64,000 nucleotides of DNA from Candidatus Micrarchaeota archaeon (lineage in GTDB: Archaea > Micrarchaeota > Micrarchaeia > Anstonellales > Bilamarchaeaceae), in contig JBBSVO010000006.1 of NCBI GenBank assembly GCA_038046805.1, forward strand, positions 172,976-236,975, read 5' to 3'. Both the position numbers and the translations under genes were made by a program. The stretch's first letter is position 1. Every line of letters begins with the position of its first letter. This document shows, in pieces, positions 18,913 through 64,000 of this stretch. The notes beneath the pieces are model-generated. The model had not been told where the DNA came from and ran no database searches. It was given only the letters and a program-made list of their open reading frames with translations.

Positions 18913-19005
18913 TTATATTTTTGGGCCCGTGGTCGATACGTTTGCAAAAACGCGACAGCGGTAAGACGCTACTCTCACACAGTAGAGACACGGGGTTCAA
19001 TTCCT
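18913..19005 (+). tRNA. tRNA-Val(CAC) with short D-loop intron
   Basis: Acceptor GGGCCCG/CGGGCCC+A, T-arm CGGGG-TTCAATT-CCTCG, anticodon arm CTACT-CTCACAC-AGTAG. ~18 extra nt sit in the D region. Confidence 0.5.
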
Positions 19006-19126
19006 CGCGGGCCCAATTTTTCCTTTGTATTGCGTTTAGTGTCTTTGGTTTTAACTCTTGAAAAATTGGGAAGAAGTAAAATTTCAGCAGAAATTTTATA
19101 ACAGCTCATTTTTCTATTTATCTGCT

Positions 19127-36324: not shown

Positions 36325-37248
36325 ATGATGCAAATAACCTTTATCGGAACAGGCGGTTCTGCTCCAACTCCATCACGTGGTTTACCCGCAATAGCGATCC
36401 ATGCAAAGGAACTCATGCTTTTTGACTGCGGCGAGGGAACCCAGCGTCAGATGATGCGATATAAAGTCGGCTATGGTTCAGTGCGTGCAATTTTCATCTC
36501 TCATATGCACCTTGACCATTATCTCGGAATTTTCGGGCTTCTTGAAACACTGAGAATGAATTCTCCCTCACCAAAGCCACTTCACATTTTCGCTCCAGCG
36601 GCATTCTATGAAAAATTTTTGGCAATCAGCGGTTACAAAGCGGCAAACTACAAATTTGTTGAAATACATTCAATTCGCGTCGACGGTTCGAATTCGGAAA
36701 GTAAAATTTACGAAAATGATGAATTCGAAGTCAGTGCGTTTCCGGTAGAGCACGGAATGCGGGATGCGTTTGGTTTCATAATAAAAGAAAAGGACAAGAT
36801 AAAATTCCACGAAGAAAAAGCACACGGACTCGGATTAAAAGGAAAATTATTCCGCACGATTCAGGACAAGGGTGAGGTCACGGTTGGCGGAAAGAAAATC
36901 AGACTCAAGGAGGTTAGTTGGGTAAAAGAAGGCGCAAGGATAGTTTACACTGGAGACACAACCTCCTCAAAATCCGTAGCCTCTGCGGCAAAGGGAGCTG
37001 CCCTTCTTATCCACGACGCTACTTTTTCATCCGAATCCAATGCCTCCGAAACTGAAAAGCGGGAGCATTCCTCTGCAAAGGATGCTGCAGAAATCGCAAA
37101 AAAAGCTGGAGTAACTCAGCTTGTCCTCACGCATATAAGTGCGAGATATTCTGAAAAAGAAGACAAAACCAGGCTTTTGGAAGAAGCAAAAGCGGTTTTT
37201 TCATCAACAATCCTTGCGGAAGACGGTTTGGTAGTTGATGTAAAATAA
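36325..37248 (+). CDS. rnz: ribonuclease Z (tRNase Z)
   Basis: ITFIGTGGSAPT…HMHLDHYLG metallo-beta-lactamase motifs. Confidence 0.85.
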   Translation: MMQITFIGTGGSAPTPSRGLPAIAIHAKELMLFDCGEGTQRQMMRYKVGYGSVRAIFISHMHLDHYLGIFGLLETLRMNSPSPKPLHIFAPAAFYEKFLAISGYKAANYKFVEIHSIRVDGSNSESKIYENDEFEVSAFPVEHGMRDAFGFIIKEKDKIKFHEEKAHGLGLKGKLFRTIQDKGEVTVGGKKIRLKEVSWVKEGARIVYTGDTTSSKSVASAAKGAALLIHDATFSSESNASETEKREHSSAKDAAEIAKKAGVTQLVLTHISARYSEKEDKTRLLEEAKAVFSSTILAEDGLVVDVK

Positions 37249-41434: not shown

Positions 41435-42772
41435 ATGTGTGCCCGGTTTGTCCAGAAAATGAGCTATAAGTACGAATTTTCAGAGGGCGAACTGAAGCCA
41501 CTTGTTGATATTCAGACAATGCTTGAGGATGACGATCCGTTGCAGCAGTTCTCTAAATTCATGGAAAAAGTAGAACCGCCAGCCAAAGAAGCGAAGAAAG
41601 ACATTTCGGTTGCTATCGCAGAAGTACAGGATGATGTTGCATCACACTCTGATTCGTCATTAACAAGCATGCAGGGAGCGACCGAAAGAGAGGACGTTCA
41701 ATCCTCCCACTACGTCATCACGTTCTTCAATCCAGAAACAGGAAAGGCAGAGGTTCTCGGTGTTTCCTCGGAAATCCGGGTTAAGGATTATGCAAAGAAA
41801 GTGATAGAAGAATCTCTAGGCCAGCAATCAACATTGCCATTATATACGTTTATAGCAACTCCCATCATTCGCAAGGAAGTCAATCCATATCTTCTTGAAG
41901 ACCTCATTAACAATATGGAATATGGTACCCCGCCCCCATTTGGCGGTTCGGTAAAAATTTCAACCGAAAAATCTGCCGCAATATTGCGTGAAAAAGCAGC
42001 TTCGGTAAAACAGAGCGAAATCGTGGCGGTATCCAGGCTGGAACAAAGACAAAAAAATAAACGCGCAGATGAAATTCAAGAGCCCGTCATTGTGGCGACA
42101 TCCGAAGTCAAGAAAGAAAAACCCTCCAATTTGAGTGCGGAACACTATAACAAAGCGCTTCGCGCGGATCAACACGACAAAGCGCTTCGCGCGAAACACA
42201 ACGAACCAGAACAATTCGGGACAAAGCAGTTAATCGAACCTGTTCCGATAGATATCGAGCATGTTCCAATAAACGCAGGTCGTTCTATCAAATCATCTGC
42301 TCATAGTTCTGAAATAGTTTCAGCTACTCAAAATACAAAACTAGTCAAAGCATCCGAGCAATTACCGCATTCTGTTTCCGTTTCTCAGAAAAAGGAAAAA
42401 ACATATGTGCCTGCCATTAAGTCCGAAGTCGTGCTTGAACCTTCTGTTAAACATGCAATAGAAGAAAGCATTGTCAGGAAAGAACGTGCAGAGACGGATA
42501 TTGGTCAAGAAATTGTTTCAATCGAGCGGGTTGTGGTGTCAATTCGCGATAGGCATATCCCGCTGGAAAAGGCAATCCTTGCCCTCCCCCCAATAACCAG
42601 GGCACGCTTCAGTGCAGTTGTAAAAAAGAAGCACCTTCCTGCATCAATGATTCTCTCTCTTTTGGAAAAGGACATCTCTTTCCTAAAATCAGTCAAAAAG
42701 AAGCTTGCAACGCTTTCGTTTGATGACCTGCTTTCCGTGGTTCGCGCAGTTAAATCTCTTTCTGCGAAATAG
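41435..42772 (+). CDS. hypothetical protein with short internal tandem repeat (KALRADQHDKALRAKH)
   Basis: ORF plus a nucleotide repeat caaagcgcttcgcgcg occurring twice. Confidence 0.35.
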   Translation: MCARFVQKMSYKYEFSEGELKPLVDIQTMLEDDDPLQQFSKFMEKVEPPAKEAKKDISVAIAEVQDDVASHSDSSLTSMQGATEREDVQSSHYVITFFNPETGKAEVLGVSSEIRVKDYAKKVIEESLGQQSTLPLYTFIATPIIRKEVNPYLLEDLINNMEYGTPPPFGGSVKISTEKSAAILREKAASVKQSEIVAVSRLEQRQKNKRADEIQEPVIVATSEVKKEKPSNLSAEHYNKALRADQHDKALRAKHNEPEQFGTKQLIEPVPIDIEHVPINAGRSIKSSAHSSEIVSATQNTKLVKASEQLPHSVSVSQKKEKTYVPAIKSEVVLEPSVKHAIEESIVRKERAETDIGQEIVSIERVVVSIRDRHIPLEKAILALPPITRARFSAVVKKKHLPASMILSLLEKDISFLKSVKKKLATLSFDDLLSVVRAVKSLSAK

Positions 42773-42825
42773 CCATGAGCCTTGGGCCATGAGCCTCGGA
42801 TGTATTTTGAATAAAAATAAAAAAA

Positions 42826-43056
42826 AGCCTCAAGAGAGATTTGAACTCCCGACCTCCTCCTTTCTACACCCAATCTCCCCGTAAGAGGGGGTTTGGGCGG
42901 CATGAAAGGCACTAAGGGGGACGCTTCCCCCTTTGGGCCTTCTACAAGAGAGGCGCTCTACATCCAGAAGTCTTGCGTTTCGTATTCCGTGTTTTGAGCC
43001 GGATAAGACTCAGGACAATAGGACAAAACCCAAAACTTTCACTGAGCTATTGAGGC
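42826..43056 (-). tRNA. tRNA-Thr(UGU) with two introns (D-loop ~80 nt; canonical 37/38 ~85 nt), 231 nt total
   Basis: Acceptor GCCTCAA/TTGAGGC, TA-GCTC…GAGC D-stem, anticodon arm CCTCT-CTTGTA[intron]A-GGAGG, variable AGGTC, T-arm GGGAG-TTCAAAT-CTCTC. Confidence 0.5.
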
Positions 43057-43141
43057 TATGTATGATTTTTTGTGCCACGTATGTATTTAAAGGATTTCCA
43101 TATATAGTTTTTTCACTAACTTGTTGTTTAGGTGAATCTTT

Positions 43142-43294
43142 ATGGGTAAATTTCCAGAAGCTGATGCTGAAATATCAAAAATAATGATCTGTAGAAAATG
43201 TAAGTCAAGGAATCCAAAAGGGCTTAAAAAATGCAGAAAATGCGGCTCCCAATACCTTAGACCAAAGAAGAAGGAAATAAGGGCAAAGAAGTAA
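43142..43294 (+). CDS. rpl40e: 50S ribosomal protein L40e
   Basis: 50-aa MGKFPEADAEISKIMICRKCKSRNPKGLKKCRKCGSQYLRPKKK with the zinc-ribbon L40e signature. Below the ORF-track length cutoff. Confidence 0.75.
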   Translation: MGKFPEADAEISKIMICRKCKSRNPKGLKKCRKCGSQYLRPKKKEIRAKK

Positions 43295-45204: not shown

Positions 45205-45365
45205 TGTTAAACTTCTTCTTGCAGTCCACATGTTTTTAACAATAGCGGAACAAATTTTCAATTATGTCCGAAGCACCATTAGTTGAAATAGACGCGTCAA
45301 AGGGAGAAGGCGGTTTGTTTGAACGACGAATCGTCCAAAGCCCGCCTTCCCAAAAAGGCAATTGC

Positions 45366-46376
45366 ATGGTTGAAATAGACGCGTCAAAGGGAGAAGGCGG
45401 CGGTCAGATTATCCGAACTGCCCTTTCACTCTCAGCAATTACCAAAATTCCGGTTCGTATTTTCAATATTCGTGCTAAAAGACCTAATCCTGGCCTTCAG
45501 GCACAGCATCTTATGGCTTGCAAATCCGTTCGCAATATTTGTCGCGGAACTCTTGAACATGCGGAATTAAATAGCAGCGAACTTGTTTTTCATCCAGGGG
45601 AAATCGTCGGGGGCAATTATGAATTTGATATAGGGACTGCGGGTTCTGTTGTTCTTGTTGCCCAGACTTTGATTCCTATTCTTCTATTTGCAAACAAGAA
45701 AAGCACCGTTCGGATAAAGGGCGGTACTCATGTCATGAAATCTCCAAGTTATGATTATTTCGCAGAGGTCTTTGTTCCTGCTCTTCGGAAATTTGGAATC
45801 GCTATTAAAACCCGTGTCTTGAAAATCGGTTTTTATCCTGTTGGCGGAGGAGAAATAGAATTTGAAATAGAACCGAACCTTCCGCATGGTGTGGTGAATT
45901 GGGCAACTCCTGATAATTCTGAAGGAAAAAGAGTATTGATCCGCACTTCCTCGTCTTTGCCCGAACTCATCTCTATTCGCGAAAAGAAAATTTTTGTCCA
46001 GAATAATCTCGAAAATGTGCGGGTATTCTCCGACCAAACTGCTTCACAAGGAAACGCCATCTTGTTCTGGGAAGGTTTCTGCGGAGCATATTCTCTTGGA
46101 GAAAGGGGAAAACGTGCAGAAGTGGTTGCTCAGGAAGCTCTTGATGAATTCAGAAAAGAAGAATCTGCGCAAGCCGACGTAGATAAGCATCTTGCAGACC
46201 AGCTTCTTCTCTACGCGGCCCTTGCTGACGCTTCTGGCGAAAAGGCGGAGACGCGGTTCAAAACATCTGAAATAACGGAACATCTGCGTACGAATGCAGA
46301 AATAATAAAAAAATTCAATAATAAAAAAATAGAAATAAATGAAGAGAAAAAAGAGGTTTTTGTTGGATCACTATAG
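45366..46376 (+). CDS. rtcA: RNA 3'-terminal phosphate cyclase
   Basis: MVEIDASKGEGGGQIIRTALSLS matches the RtcA N-terminus. ORF 45264 adds a repeat-derived 34-aa extension. Confidence 0.8.
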   Translation: MVEIDASKGEGGGQIIRTALSLSAITKIPVRIFNIRAKRPNPGLQAQHLMACKSVRNICRGTLEHAELNSSELVFHPGEIVGGNYEFDIGTAGSVVLVAQTLIPILLFANKKSTVRIKGGTHVMKSPSYDYFAEVFVPALRKFGIAIKTRVLKIGFYPVGGGEIEFEIEPNLPHGVVNWATPDNSEGKRVLIRTSSSLPELISIREKKIFVQNNLENVRVFSDQTASQGNAILFWEGFCGAYSLGERGKRAEVVAQEALDEFRKEESAQADVDKHLADQLLLYAALADASGEKAETRFKTSEITEHLRTNAEIIKKFNNKKIEINEEKKEVFVGSL

Positions 46377-60034: not shown

Positions 60035-60212
60035 TGGGCCCGTTGTGATTTGAACACAAGACCTTTCGATTTCTATTGCATTTGTGCGATATCAGTCGAA
60101 CGCTCCAACCGGATTGCTCGTCCCTTCGGACTTTTTCTGCCTCAGGACTTTTCCGCTGGAGCGCTTTTGTCCTTTGGCTTCTGAAGTCAAAAGGGCCCTG
60201 AGCTACGGGCCC
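60035..60212 (-). tRNA. tRNA-Ile(GAU) with two introns (D-loop ~83 nt; canonical 37/38 19 nt), 178 nt
   Basis: GGGCCCG-TA-GCTC…GAGC-G-TTCGA-CTGATA[19 nt]A-TCGAA-AGGTC-TTGTG-TTCAAAT-CACAA-CGGGCCC-A. All stems pair canonically. Confidence 0.6.
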
Positions 60213-61090: not shown

Positions 61091-62215
61091 GTGAAAATCG
61101 CTATTATTTCTGATACTCATTTGGGTTATGCCCGTTTTGAGGATGATGCAGCCGAGCAGGCAGAATCAGCATTTCTTGATGCAGCAAAAAAAGCAGATCT
61201 TATTCTTTACGCCGGAGATGTTTTTGACGTGAAAGTCCCGCGTTTGGAAACAATGAGGCACGCGGTTGACATGCTCAGGAAAGCAGGCGCGTCCAGAGTT
61301 CCAATCTACGCAATCCACGGAAACCACGAAAGAAGAAGCAAGGACATGGTTAATCCTGTTCAGCTCTTGGCGACTGTTGGGGTTCTCAATTACCTGCACG
61401 CAAGCGGAACAATTTTTGAAAAAAATAATGAAAGGATTTTCATTTTCGGGATGGGGAGCGTGCCAGAGGATTTAGCCGCAACTGCATTGAAGACCGCGGT
61501 AGGGCGGGTTGAAGTGCCGAGTGGAATGCTTAGAATTCTTATGCTTCACCAGACTATAAAGGATTTTTCGCTTGGGGGAGAGGACGATCTCACGATGGAT
61601 GAAATTTCAGGCCTACCTTTTGACTTAATTGTGAACGGACACATCCACAAGACGATAATTAATAACGAAGAAAATATGTTAATCCCGGGAAGTACTGTCA
61701 TCACCCAGCTTAAGGAGGATGAAACTGCCCCGCGCGGGTACATACTTTATGATACCTCTTCCAAAAAACCAGAATTTGTTGAAATCCCGCACCGAAAGTT
61801 TCTTTACGCGGAATTGAAATTCTCTTCTGCGAGTATGGTTGAAGTGCGAAATGTAGTAATTGAGAAGCTTGCGGAACTGAAAAAATTGGCAGATGGGGCG
61901 AAAAAACAACCAATAATTCGCATAAAACTTTCTGGAACTCTTAAGGAAGGAATCCGTCCATCAGATTTATTCATCTCAGCAGATGGGGCATTTATAGATA
62001 ATCAGTTGAACCGTAACGATGCGGGGATGAAACTTTCTCTTCCTTCCACTCCATCCGGAAGAACCGGAACAGTAACTGAAATAGCAATTTCTCTTCTGCG
62101 GAATAAAATCGGGGACAAAATGAAGCTGCTGGATCCAGCAATACTTTTTGATAAAGTTTCTGGCGATGTTGAATCTGCAGCGGAATATGTAAACTCAGCC
62201 GGTAATTCTCAATAA
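61091..62215 (+). CDS. Mre11/SbcD-family metallophosphoesterase (DNA repair nuclease-like)
   Basis: IAIISDTHLG…GDVFD…IHGNHE…GHIH calcineurin-like motifs. Confidence 0.65.
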   Translation: MKIAIISDTHLGYARFEDDAAEQAESAFLDAAKKADLILYAGDVFDVKVPRLETMRHAVDMLRKAGASRVPIYAIHGNHERRSKDMVNPVQLLATVGVLNYLHASGTIFEKNNERIFIFGMGSVPEDLAATALKTAVGRVEVPSGMLRILMLHQTIKDFSLGGEDDLTMDEISGLPFDLIVNGHIHKTIINNEENMLIPGSTVITQLKEDETAPRGYILYDTSSKKPEFVEIPHRKFLYAELKFSSASMVEVRNVVIEKLAELKKLADGAKKQPIIRIKLSGTLKEGIRPSDLFISADGAFIDNQLNRNDAGMKLSLPSTPSGRTGTVTEIAISLLRNKIGDKMKLLDPAILFDKVSGDVESAAEYVNSAGNSQ

Positions 62216-63316
62216 TGCATCTGCAAACTCCTTTGCATTTGCAGCGCTTTTCAAAGAAACATCCGAGAAATGGGTTCTCATGGTTTTGAATCCAAGTGAA
62301 TTCAATTCTTCAATTATCTTGCTCATTTTCGGAACGCTCTTCATGGAAATTCTTCTGCACATCCTGTGAACATTGTAATATCCAGGTGGCATTTCAATTT
62401 CTCCTTCAATCAGTGCCAGAATTTTTTCTATCTCTTCAATATCCTCATAATCTTTTTTTCCGTTGAGTTTTCGCATTTTTGAGAGTGTTTCTCCGTCGTT
62501 TAGCCTCCCAATCCACAGTGGTCCACCCCATCTGGTTTCATTTCCGCAGTTTCCGCATTTTTCAATTATTTTTCCCCAACTTTCTCTCCACCCACATTTT
62601 TCGCAATAAGAAATATAACCAAAGTTCCTTATGTTTTCGTCACTTTTTGCCGCACTACTTTCGCACTTTACAATGACCTTGAGATAATGCCTGTCGGAAA
62701 GAGAAACGAGCGGACTTATTCCAAAATTAAATTCCGAGGCTGCCTCGGCAATTCTCCTAATCAGAATCCGCAATCCGTTTTCGTGCGTAAACTCATTATT
62801 CAGGCTTTTTGCATGATAGTTCTTTAGACAAGCGGTCTTCTCATGGCCGCACAGGACGGCAGTATCTGTTGCAGTAGCGGATAGATAAAATGTTTTCGTT
62901 CCGCTCTGGTTCATGCGGAAGAATACCGCGAATAAATAGGGGGCAGGTGTTCCAAAAGGATCAAGTTCTATGAAGTTAAATTCAAAGTCTGTTGCATCAG
63001 CCACGAGAAATTTTACTATATCATCATTCACAATTTTTGCCTTTCTTGCCGATATTTTGTTTTTTGCCGCATTCTTTTTTGCAAGTGCAATTGCATTTTT
63101 GCTCCAGTCAAGGAAAGTAACAGAACTTACGTTCTTGTTTTCTTTCGCATATCGTATTCCGCGTATTCCGCTTGCGCAGAATCCATCCAGCACATTAAGT
63201 TTTTCTCCAATTGCACCAACTGCAAGGGAGCTGAAGCTGCGGCAGAATCGCATCTCTGGATTGTAGAATATTTTATCTGCTGAGAATATTTTGCTTTCTT
63301 CTTCCATATTTCTCAC
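62195..63316 (-). CDS. trm1: tRNA (guanine26-N2)-dimethyltransferase Trm1
   Basis: FYNPEMRFCR motif plus C-terminal zinc finger (CEKCGW…CGNCG). Confidence 0.8.
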   Translation of the reverse strand: MRNMEEESKIFSADKIFYNPEMRFCRSFSSLAVGAIGEKLNVLDGFCASGIRGIRYAKENKNVSSVTFLDWSKNAIALAKKNAAKNKISARKAKIVNDDIVKFLVADATDFEFNFIELDPFGTPAPYLFAVFFRMNQSGTKTFYLSATATDTAVLCGHEKTACLKNYHAKSLNNEFTHENGLRILIRRIAEAASEFNFGISPLVSLSDRHYLKVIVKCESSAAKSDENIRNFGYISYCEKCGWRESWGKIIEKCGNCGNETRWGGPLWIGRLNDGETLSKMRKLNGKKDYEDIEEIEKILALIEGEIEMPPGYYNVHRMCRRISMKSVPKMSKIIEELNSLGFKTMRTHFSDVSLKSAANAKEFADALLRITG

Positions 63317-63319
63317 GTT

Positions 63320-64000
63320 TTATTTTTCTTCATCAATAAATTCTCTCATTGCAACCGTTGCATAGCTTCCTGCCTGTAGTGAGAACGTAAATATGCCAGC
63401 AATATTATCTTCTTCATCGGTCTTCATATCAAATTCGAAATCCTTTAACGGTGCAAGAAGCGTTCTCAAACTTCCGTTAGAGCTTATTTCCGGGATTTTC
63501 TTCACACGAAAATCGCTTCTTCTGATTCCAAGTTCCTGCAATACTCTTTCCTCGCGTTCGTTTGTTTCTGTTTCATAACCGATTAGTTTGCCGACAATAT
63601 ATCTGCCTTCGTCAGTATCTTTTTTATTTATATCCGGAAATCCGAATTCGTTTTCTCCGCAAAAATATTCCCCCTCTTCGCAGGATATTTCTCCATTCTT
63701 TATCCGTTCTGAAATGCAAATGTTAAATATATAGCTTTGTAACGCATGAACAAACATCAAAAGGATATTACGCGGCAATCTTCTAAGTGCTCCGATATAA
63801 TCTTCCGGAGTTTCTGCCAAATGTGCAAGCATTGAGCGTTCAAGACGGAGGTGTTTTGGAAAGTTTTTCAGCGCAGCGGCGTAATCTTCTGTCTCAAGCA
63901 ATTGTTTTCTTGCCGTGCTTGCAGAATCATTTTTCTCTCCATCCGAGTTTGTCAGGTATTCGGTTACTGCCCCCTCAAAATCTCCTTTTACAATCCGTTC
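63320..64000 (-). CDS. truD: tRNA pseudouridine synthase TruD/Pus7, C-terminal part (gene continues beyond window)
   Basis: C-terminal …AGSYATVAMREF matches the TruD tail. The reading frame stays open to the window edge. Confidence 0.55.
   Translation of the reverse strand, partial: ERIVKGDFEGAVTEYLTNSDGEKNDSASTARKQLLETEDYAAALKNFPKHLRLERSMLAHLAETPEDYIGALRRLPRNILLMFVHALQSYIFNICISERIKNGEISCEEGEYFCGENEFGFPDINKKDTDEGRYIVGKLIGYETETNEREERVLQELGIRRSDFRVKKIPEISSNGSLRTLLAPLKDFEFDMKTDEEDNIAGIFTFSLQAGSYATVAMREFIDEEK

Follow-up and report, generated by a model that had tools for sequence, protein, structure and literature searches.

A tRNA-Thr(UGU) gene with two long introns in a Candidatus Micrarchaeota archaeon

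A 64,000-nucleotide (nt) stretch of contig JBBSVO010000006.1 (assembly GCA_038046805.1, Candidatus Micrarchaeota archaeon), referred to in its full length as the window, contains on its minus strand, between positions 42826 and 43056, a 231-nt tRNA-Thr(UGU) gene made up of three exons and two introns. It is very probably a functional gene of this DPANN archaeon, with a transcript that would be spliced by the tRNA endonuclease EndA. Coordinates are window positions unless stated otherwise and are collected in Table 1; nucleotides of the precursor are numbered along the minus strand from 43056 (nt 1) to 42826. Joining the exons in silico yields a tRNA of 72 nt, not counting the CCA end, which is not encoded in the gene, and ARAGORN identifies this product as tRNA-Thr(tgt). 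A preliminary description drawn from the sequence had already given the gene this identity, with one intron in the D-loop and another after position 37. All the minus-strand elements it listed are indeed present (GCCTCAA/TTGAGGC, GCTC/GAGC, CCTCT/GGAGG, CTTGTA...A, AGGTC and GGGAG-TTCAAAT-CTCTC), but its mature product of ~75 nt (76 nt by its own exons) is shortened to 72 nt by the corrected map given here. The base pairs G1-C72 and C2-G71 and the discriminator base U73 fit what we take to be the identity elements of archaeal tRNA-Thr. The precursor has a predicted folding energy of -95.6 kcal/mol (z = -4.2), which none of 200 dinucleotide shuffles equalled, and its predicted structure contains the expected acceptor and T arms. 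The gene is preceded by a TATA-like box and followed by a run of eight T residues (Table 1). A comparable A/T-rich box is found at a comparable distance in the orthologous loci L006, L088, L090, L097 and L012.

A scan of species-representative genomes with a 24-mer covering the T-arm and acceptor of exon 3, which is common to DPANN tRNA-Thr genes, returned six matches, all of them in DPANN archaea. Five are Woesearchaeota tRNA-Thr genes that are either intron-less or interrupted at 37/38 only. The sixth, L006, comes from a Micrarchaeota metagenome-assembled genome (MAG; UBA10214) and carries inserts of 135 and 54 nt at the same two sites as the window. Exon 2 was used for a metagenome scan which produced 92 matches, mostly unrelated bacterial tRNA-Thr genes, with about ten useful archaeal relatives; the 19-mer is exact in the archaeal orthologs recovered in this way. 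With five further orthologs from loci of relatives in which the gene is linked to that of ribosomal protein L40e, the comparison set comprises 14 tRNA-Thr(UGU) genes, the window included, and each of them restores the same mature tRNA when spliced in silico.

In the closest ortholog, L006, the two introns occupy the same sites, and 72 of 72 exon positions are identical to those of the window. Outside the exons, 63/78 positions are identical in the alignable part of intron 1 and 71/90 in the 90 nt upstream. With ~80 % identity as background, the exons should differ at about 14 positions, yet they differ at none. At the sequence level, the comparison indicates purifying selection confined to the exons. 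Exon 1 is unchanged not only in L006 but also in L090 and L097. Over the mature sequence, 71 of 72 positions are shared with the window by both L097, which has no D-loop intron, and L090, which has no 37/38 intron; the value for the fully intron-less gene of L047 is 64/72. The agreement of the three exons with those of L006, L090 and L097 greatly exceeds what chance would produce.

The 14 genes contain between zero and two introns each, and four sites are involved: two in the D-loop, one following nt 15 and the other nt 17, the 37/38 position and the T-loop. No intron is present in L047; L099, which was kept outside this inventory, also has an intron-less copy. The only intron is at 37/38 in L097, L100, L092, L109 and L082 (14-52 nt), in the D-loop in L090 (17 nt) and in the T-loop in L111. 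D-loop and 37/38 introns are combined in the window, L006 and L067, D-loop and T-loop introns in L088 and L115, and 37/38 and T-loop introns in L012. Among the locus and its relatives, intron length ranges from 14 to about 200 nt. The long end of this range is represented by the tRNA-Thr(UGU) gene of L115 (GCA_016180665.1, about 1024-1400 on the minus strand of the locus), with a D-loop intron of 79 nt and an approximately bounded T-loop intron of ~196 nt, very long among archaeal tRNA introns.

The orthologs also fix the boundaries of intron 1. Every ortholog without a D-loop intron reads GCTCAGTGGTAGAGCG, or has CGG or TCGG in place of TGG, and the sequence of these genes at the intron 1 site is GCTCAGTGGTAGAGC. 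Exon 1 has to end at ...GCTCAGTG and exon 2 to start at GTAGAGC, because only such a split reproduces the D-loop of the orthologs lacking the intron. The junction of exons 1 and 2, GCUCAGUG joined to GUAGAGC, is set both by the orthologs and by bulge-helix-bulge (BHB) geometry. It results in the D-loop AGUGGUA, the same as in L047, L097, L092 and L012 (none of which has a D-loop intron), and in a strict BHB scan a=17/b=96 is the only split with the correct geometry for this intron (H 4/4, h' 7/7). The preliminary description was right in placing an insert of ~80 nt in the D-loop, but it implied an intron of 74 nt at precursor nt 17-90 instead of 78 nt at nt 18-95, so that its exon junction is misplaced by 1 nt at the 5' boundary of the intron and by 5 nt at the 3' boundary; for the insert of ~85 nt after position 37 the site was correct, and the length is 81 nt. 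Taken as a whole, this earlier model (introns at precursor nt 17-90 and 115-195, and a 76-nt tRNA with the 11-nt D-loop AGUUGGAUGUA) can hardly be right. Its product does fold into a regular cloverleaf which ARAGORN likewise calls tRNA-Thr(tgt). However, the split that it needs, with AGT before the intron and TGGATGTA after it, creates a D-loop that occurs in no ortholog, those without a D-loop intron reading GCUCAGUGGUAGAGC. When it is applied to L006, where the intron ends in ...CTGTAT and not in ...CTGGAT as in the window, the outcome is AGUUGUAUGUA, which is devoid of the conserved G18G19. Moreover, its sites (a=16, b=91) are not recovered by the strict BHB scan.

Seen from the exon side, the BHB motif opens with an outer helix (h) and a 3-nt bulge containing the 3' cut. 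Next come a 4-bp helix (H), in which the last exon nucleotides pair with intron nt -6 to -3, and a second 3-nt bulge, where the 5' cut is made; the inner helix (h') closes the motif. Relaxed variants, designated hBH and HBh', have been described (PMC3239211). Intron 1 forms a relaxed HBh' motif according to the minimum free energy (MFE) fold, the strict BHB scan and the ortholog table. All four pairs of H are present (U12-G93, C13-G92, A14-U91 and G15-C90, one being a G-U pair), with intron nt -6 to -3 (CUGG) facing exon nt 12-15 (UCAG). The 5' bulge is U16 G17/A18, the slash marking the cut, and h' extends over 8 bp (nt 19-26 with nt 82-89; seven Watson-Crick pairs and one G-U). Since H occupies half of the 5' strand of the D-stem, the latter would form only after splicing. 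Both L006 and L088 have an intron with the same geometry at this D-loop site, and their h' sequences covary; the h' of L088 differs from that of the window by the compensatory changes A-U to G-C and U-A to C-G. The D-loop introns of L090, L067 and L115, and those of two further tRNA genes of the window, tRNA-Val(CAC) and tRNA-Ile(GAU), are inserted two positions further 5', after nt 15; their 3' end, ...GAGCAA or a sequence close to it, mimics the 3' strand of the D-stem, and they form three or four of the four H pairs. Relative to the window, intron 1 of L006 contains an insertion of 57 nt (about 620-680) that corresponds to a compound hairpin, CCGATAAAA...TTTTATCGG, which suggests that the introns of these tRNA-Thr genes grow by hairpin addition.

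Intron 2 has a degenerate hBH-like motif, in which the 5-bp anticodon stem takes the part of h and A194 A195/A196 (AA/A38) forms the 3' bulge. The BHB modelling proposed in the preliminary description thus gives a clean relaxed motif for intron 1 and only this degenerate one for intron 2. The intron folds into two hairpins, A (about 42905-42942) and B (about 42867-42899). Hairpin A begins at intron nt +1 and consists of a basal helix, GAAGGC/GCCUUU, and an apical part, GGGGGA-AGCG-UCCCCC, while hairpin B is formed by CGCCCAA...UUGGGUG. Together with a short H, the two hairpins make up a three-way junction, the 5' cut being located in the junction strand, and we infer from this model that the basal helix of hairpin A may serve as h'. 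A conformer of the precursor that displays the BHB-like motifs of both introns, with the anticodon stem, two H pairs and both the 3' bulge and the 5'-site nucleotides of intron 2 open, lies only 2.9 kcal/mol above the MFE structure. The U34.U mismatch within H is tolerated by the intron family, because L006, L067 and L092 have it in their 37/38 introns as well.

Other ways of delimiting intron 2 were tried and discarded. Shifting the junctions by hand changes the anticodon to UGA or AGA or gives G38, which conflicts with the 5-nt variable loop (not that of a tRNA-Ser), the avoidance of A34 in archaea and the A38 of the orthologs. Removal of a nested 30-nt intron (a=155/b=186), or use of an alternative pairing (a=111/b=186), neither leaves a tRNA nor offers a better motif. 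Exhaustive strict BHB enumeration over the precursor, a procedure that is very noisy on this G- and pyrimidine-rich sequence, provided nothing usable for intron 2 at junctions giving a 7-nt anticodon loop. A pairing between the two introns (CCCAAAC with GUUUUGGG) was rejected, as the partner sequence is missing in L006.

Intron 2 is clearly homologous to an intron at a different site of the same gene in a related genome. This homolog, a 73-nt intron that follows A59 in the T-loop of L088, can be aligned with it over about 61 positions, among them the shared blocks GCCCAA(A)GGGGGA(A)GCG(U)CCCCCUUAGU and CCGCCCAAACCCCC. Local alignment gives a score of 47, compared to 13.5 +/- 2.3 for shuffled sequences (z = 14.4, none of 1000 being as good). 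The L088 gene is an ortholog by its mature sequence (69/72 identical to the window), its D-loop intron at the same site and its L40e neighbour. Three double substitutions (G.U to C-G, A-U to U-A and A-U to C-G, as compared by hand) have left the pairing in the basal helix of hairpin A intact. The ends of the two introns differ: GUAG of intron 2 pairs with C32 U33, and CGAA of the L088 intron pairs with U54 U55 C56. The signature of this two-hairpin family is ...GGGGG-loop-CCCCC-UUAGU... followed by ...CCCAAACCCCC....

More distant similarities extend to other relatives. The 37/38 intron of L006 is homologous to intron 2 in the hairpin B part only (z = 4.6), the T-loop introns of L012 and L115 have ...AAAGGCU(A/C)GUGCUAACCCAAA... 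in common with each other, and a T-loop intron of L102 displays the same two-hairpin layout with little sequence identity. The motif CCCAAA(A)CC (window 42887-42900, minus strand) is invariant in the introns of the window, L006, L088, L012 and L115, i.e., at two tRNA positions. The strands with which it pairs are not the same in these five introns. Beyond L088, L006 and L115, no further copy of the intron module was detected in the window or in the 115 fetched loci (~580 kb). A hairpin located outside any tRNA gene in L099 (about 2380-2450, GGGGGAGGCGTCCCCCC) resembles the apical hairpin of intron 2; it adjoins the intron-less tRNA-Thr(UGU) copy, which has the opposite orientation relative to L40e.

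From these alignments, one intron family sits at 37/38 in the lineage of the window and in the T-loop in its relatives, which implies intron transposition. With some hesitation, we favour the view that intron 2 is not an ancestral 37/38 intron but a relocated copy of the two-hairpin T-loop (59/60) family in which only the ends have been remodelled to the new exon context. It may also be that the conserved core is a functional RNA or one that binds protein. The literature search returned no report of tRNA intron transposition in Micrarchaeota, which is weak negative evidence. If the relocation is real, it would, to judge from the searched literature, provide evidence for the first time that BHB introns of DPANN archaea are mobile, and the same gene with the same intron at two sites would constitute a natural pair for studying intron movement. 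The presence of one intron family at two sites of one gene is the part of the locus most worth follow-up. More generally, the locus and its relatives form a natural series (zero, one or two introns, four sites) in which the intron ends co-vary with their exon partners, and which makes the gain, growth and movement of introns in DPANN archaea directly testable.

A number of observations weigh against a functional gene that is spliced at both sites. In intron 2, H is limited to two pairs out of four, C32-G and U33-A, followed by U34.U and G35.G mismatches, and there is no h' in strict register. This motif is the weakest among the compared 37/38 introns, those of L006, L067, L092, L012 and L100 reaching 3-4/4, and the MFE fold pairs both intron 2 splice sites rather than bulging them. 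Intron 1 for its part has no outer helix, and its 3' cut (U95/G96) falls into a loop and not into a defined bulge. Furthermore, Pfam scans of 58 open reading frames (ORFs) detected neither EndA nor RtcB in the 64-kb window. The poor motif of intron 2, as well as the rejection of the locus by standard tRNA finders, would also be compatible with a decaying pseudogene, i.e., a tRNA-Thr gene inactivated by two insertions and never spliced into a working tRNA. Such a fate is nevertheless very unlikely, because the exons are invariant with respect to L006 while introns and flanks are down to ~80 % identity, and because the promoter-like box and the T-run have been kept. The intron ends are still complementary to the adjacent exon, and this pairing covaries across the orthologs. 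Moreover, the same decay would have to affect all three tRNA genes of the window, including tRNA-Ile(GAU) and tRNA-Val(CAC), which are needed for translation.

It is also conceivable, although improbable, that the inserts, beyond being tolerated or mobile introns, mainly carry functional small RNAs released by splicing, for example a C/D-box guide or a circular RNA that is stable. In favour of this are the length and the strong structure of both introns and the conservation of the motif CCCAAACC and of the two-hairpin core of intron 2 across insertion sites and loci; in addition, the D-loop introns of the Thr and Ile genes of the window each possess one CUGA. However, a search for the C box (RUGAUGA) and the D box (CUGA) found no C box, with at most one mismatch allowed, in any of the three long introns of the window, introns 1 and 2 included, and the CUGA of intron 1 is single and internal. 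Rfam, examined around the locus down to E<=10, gives no small RNA family with a credible score, and no other copy of the module turns up in the window or the ~580 kb of related loci. In close relatives the presence, length (0 to ~200 nt) and sequence of the introns vary freely, entire hairpins having been gained or lost, which fits weak constraint. Self-splicing group I or group II introns were dismissed, as inserts of 78 and 81 nt compare with a catalytic core of >200 nt and no Rfam intron family is found at E<=10.

For the functional, EndA-spliced gene that we prefer, the data establish the exon-intron map and its conservation, the structures that can form and the homology of the introns; a plausible course of transcription, cleavage and ligation, and the likely enzyme type, can be outlined from published knowledge of the family. 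A precursor of ~231 nt would be transcribed from the TATA-box promoter to the oligo-T terminator, and EndA would then excise both introns; the enzyme of this lineage is expected to be of broad specificity, e.g., of the ARMAN-2 epsilon2 type. In the modelled structure of intron 1, the 5' cut would occur in the bulge U16 G17/A beside the 8-bp inner helix. For intron 2, the anticodon stem would act as the outer helix and AA/A38 as the bulge for the 3' cut, with the base of hairpin A standing in for h'. An RtcB-type ligase would presumably join the three exons into the 72-nt tRNA, the CCA being added later.

Table 1. Features of the tRNA-Thr(UGU) locus and of other genes in the window (64,000 nt)
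Feature	Position (strand)	Size	Description
Exon 1	43040-43056 (-)	17 nt	GCCUCAA-UA-GCUC-AGUG; acceptor 5' strand, nt 8-9, D-stem 5' strand, first four D-loop nt
Intron 1	42962-43039 (-)	78 nt	Precursor nt 18-95; in the D-loop after the 17th nt, structurally between G18 and G19
Exon 2	42943-42961 (-)	19 nt	GUA-GAGC-G-CCUCU-CUUGUA; D-loop remainder, D-stem 3' strand, G26, anticodon stem 5' strand, loop nt 32-37 with UGU
Intron 2	42862-42942 (-)	81 nt	Precursor nt 115-195; canonical 37/38 site
Exon 3	42826-42861 (-)	36 nt	A38-GGAGG-AGGUC-GGGAG-UUCAAAU-CUCUC-UUGAGGC-U73
TATA-like box	43084-43091 (-)		TTTAAATA; last base 28 nt upstream of the mature 5' end; putative archaeal promoter
Eight-T run	42819-42826 (-)		Begins at discriminator base U73; putative archaeal terminator
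Ribosomal protein L40e	43142-43294 (+)	50 amino acids	Divergent from tRNA-Thr
tRNA-Ile(GAU)	60036-60212 (-)		Discriminator A at 60035; two introns; spliced 75 nt = tRNA-Ile(gat)
tRNA-Ile(GAU) D-loop intron	60114-60197 (-)	84 nt	After G15; H 4/4
tRNA-Ile(GAU) 37/38 intron	60071-60089 (-)	19 nt	
tRNA-Val(CAC)	18923-19015 (+)		One D-loop intron
tRNA-Val(CAC) intron	18938-18958 (+)	21 nt	After nt 15; perfect HBh' (H 4/4, h' 5 bp)
RtcA RNA 3'-phosphate cyclase	45264-46376 (+)		2.2 kb from tRNA-Thr; not diagnostic for splicing
tRNase Z-like metallo-beta-lactamase	36325-37248 (+)		Not diagnostic for splicing

Standard tools overlook the gene. ARAGORN, run in default and intron mode on the 64-kb window and on the unspliced gene, found no tRNA, and half-spliced constructs led to wrong calls, e.g., Ser(aga) and Gln(ctg). 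The intron-aware prediction that the preliminary description had suggested is thus negative on the genomic sequence, and the tRNA-Thr(tgt) call appears only once the exons have been spliced in silico. Rfam has no match in the window at gathering thresholds, and around the locus only noise at E<=10. The two additional tRNA genes of the window were found by a simple scan for a T-arm plus acceptor. All three genes (Thr, Ile and Val) have a D-loop intron and two of the three contain two introns, a disrupted set of the Micrarchaeota/ARMAN-2 type, and all three escape ARAGORN and Rfam. In Micrarchaeota MAGs, tRNAs that are actually present are therefore likely to be counted as missing, with consequences for estimates of completeness and for conclusions on host dependence.

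The neighbouring genes are archaeal, with products that include RtcA, an OB-fold protein, an S-layer protein and a protein with a class III signal peptide. The L40e sequence is identical to that of a MAG protein annotated as Candidatus Micrarchaeota archaeon, and the G+C content is about 42-43 % throughout the window. Pfam scans of the window ORFs also identified ProRS. Genes for the RNA-processing enzymes Trm1 and TruD are found near tRNA genes (62195-63316 and 63320-63901, both on the minus strand). In L106, an RtcA gene (PF01137 RTC) lies within about 1.2 kb of the L40e gene. Two mechanically called ORFs, 42505-42912 (minus strand, 135 amino acids) and 42933-43184 (plus strand, 83 amino acids), overlap the tRNA gene and the L40e start; almost certainly neither is a real gene, but gene finders could report them as proteins.

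In L102 (GCA_053576935.1, Bilamarchaeaceae; about 1970-2400 on the minus strand of the locus), two adjacent and heavily disrupted tRNA genes are located upstream of L40e. The first has 37/38 and T-loop introns. The second contains three introns (D-loop, 37/38 and T-loop), its anticodon is apparently UUU and its acceptor stem is tRNA-Thr-like; the T-loop intron of this three-intron tRNA adopts a strict hBHBh' motif around a two-hairpin core.

The two-intron tRNA-Thr(UGU) gene belongs to an already known kind and does not represent a new kind of system. Long introns at 37/38 are exemplified by the tRNA-Trp of Haloferax volcanii, where a structured intron of about 100 nt carries a C/D-box guide RNA. 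The likeness to intron 2 resides in the length, structure and site of the intron; the difference is that the window intron has no pair of C and D boxes and no evident guide function.

The closest precedents come from the Micrarchaeota themselves. In ARMAN-2, 56 % of the tRNA genes are disrupted, some of them by multiple introns (PMC3239211, PMC4033280), and multi-intron tRNAs are listed for both ARMAN-1 and ARMAN-2 (PMC4033280). Only alpha-beta2 and epsilon2 endonucleases cleave non-canonical introns, and DPANN genomes are expected to hide more disrupted tRNA genes (PMC5829648). An endonuclease tolerant of relaxed motifs has been published for the Micrarchaeota of the ARMAN-2 type. The epsilon2-spliced tRNAs of ARMAN-1 and ARMAN-2 (Candidatus Micrarchaeum acidiphilum; Fujishima 2011, PMC3239211; Hirata 2012, PMC3488258) share with those of the window their origin in Micrarchaeota, the relaxed hBH/HBh' motifs and the fact that standard finders miss them. 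The preliminary description overstates the case in calling a double-intron tRNA of this size unusual, because the window itself has a two-intron tRNA-Ile(GAU) (84 + 19 nt) and a tRNA-Val with a D-loop intron, and because ARMAN-2 precedents have been published. The claim is further undercut by relatives in which a gene can have as many as three introns and an intron can reach ~200 nt. The two-intron architecture is normal for the lineage.

Outside the DPANN archaea, the Thermoproteales offer the nearest parallel to the presumed movement of intron 2. Their tRNA genes can contain up to three introns, the BHB motifs of which are mostly relaxed (Sugahara 2008; Fujishima 2010; via PMC4090602 and PMC4033280), and near-identical introns at different positions have been read as large-scale transposition (PMC4090602, PMC4033280). 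In the literature covered, intron transposition is described for the Thermoproteales only. The homology of intron 2 (37/38) to the T-loop intron of L088 resembles this situation. The Thermoproteales case differs in that it concerns different tRNA species of one genome, whereas here an orthologous gene is compared between two genomes. In addition, the intron core is here a larger, two-hairpin module, and a TACK lineage is set against a DPANN one, presumably with another enzyme architecture. In Aeropyrum pernix, tRNA-Thr isoacceptors are likewise interrupted at canonical and non-canonical sites and are processed by a broad-specificity EndA (PMC3241643); there, however, the enzyme is a crenarchaeal alpha-beta2 endonuclease, the introns are short and splicing has been proven experimentally, and the two cases are likened here by their architecture.

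What sets the window gene apart within this group concerns size and position. The introns figured for ARMAN-2 measure 13-25 nt and are located at 37/38, 53/54 and 59/60, whereas those of the window measure 78 and 81 nt, one of them between G18 and G19, a site that is not in the position lists of the literature covered. Two long introns and a D-loop site between G18 and G19 are differences of degree from the published examples.

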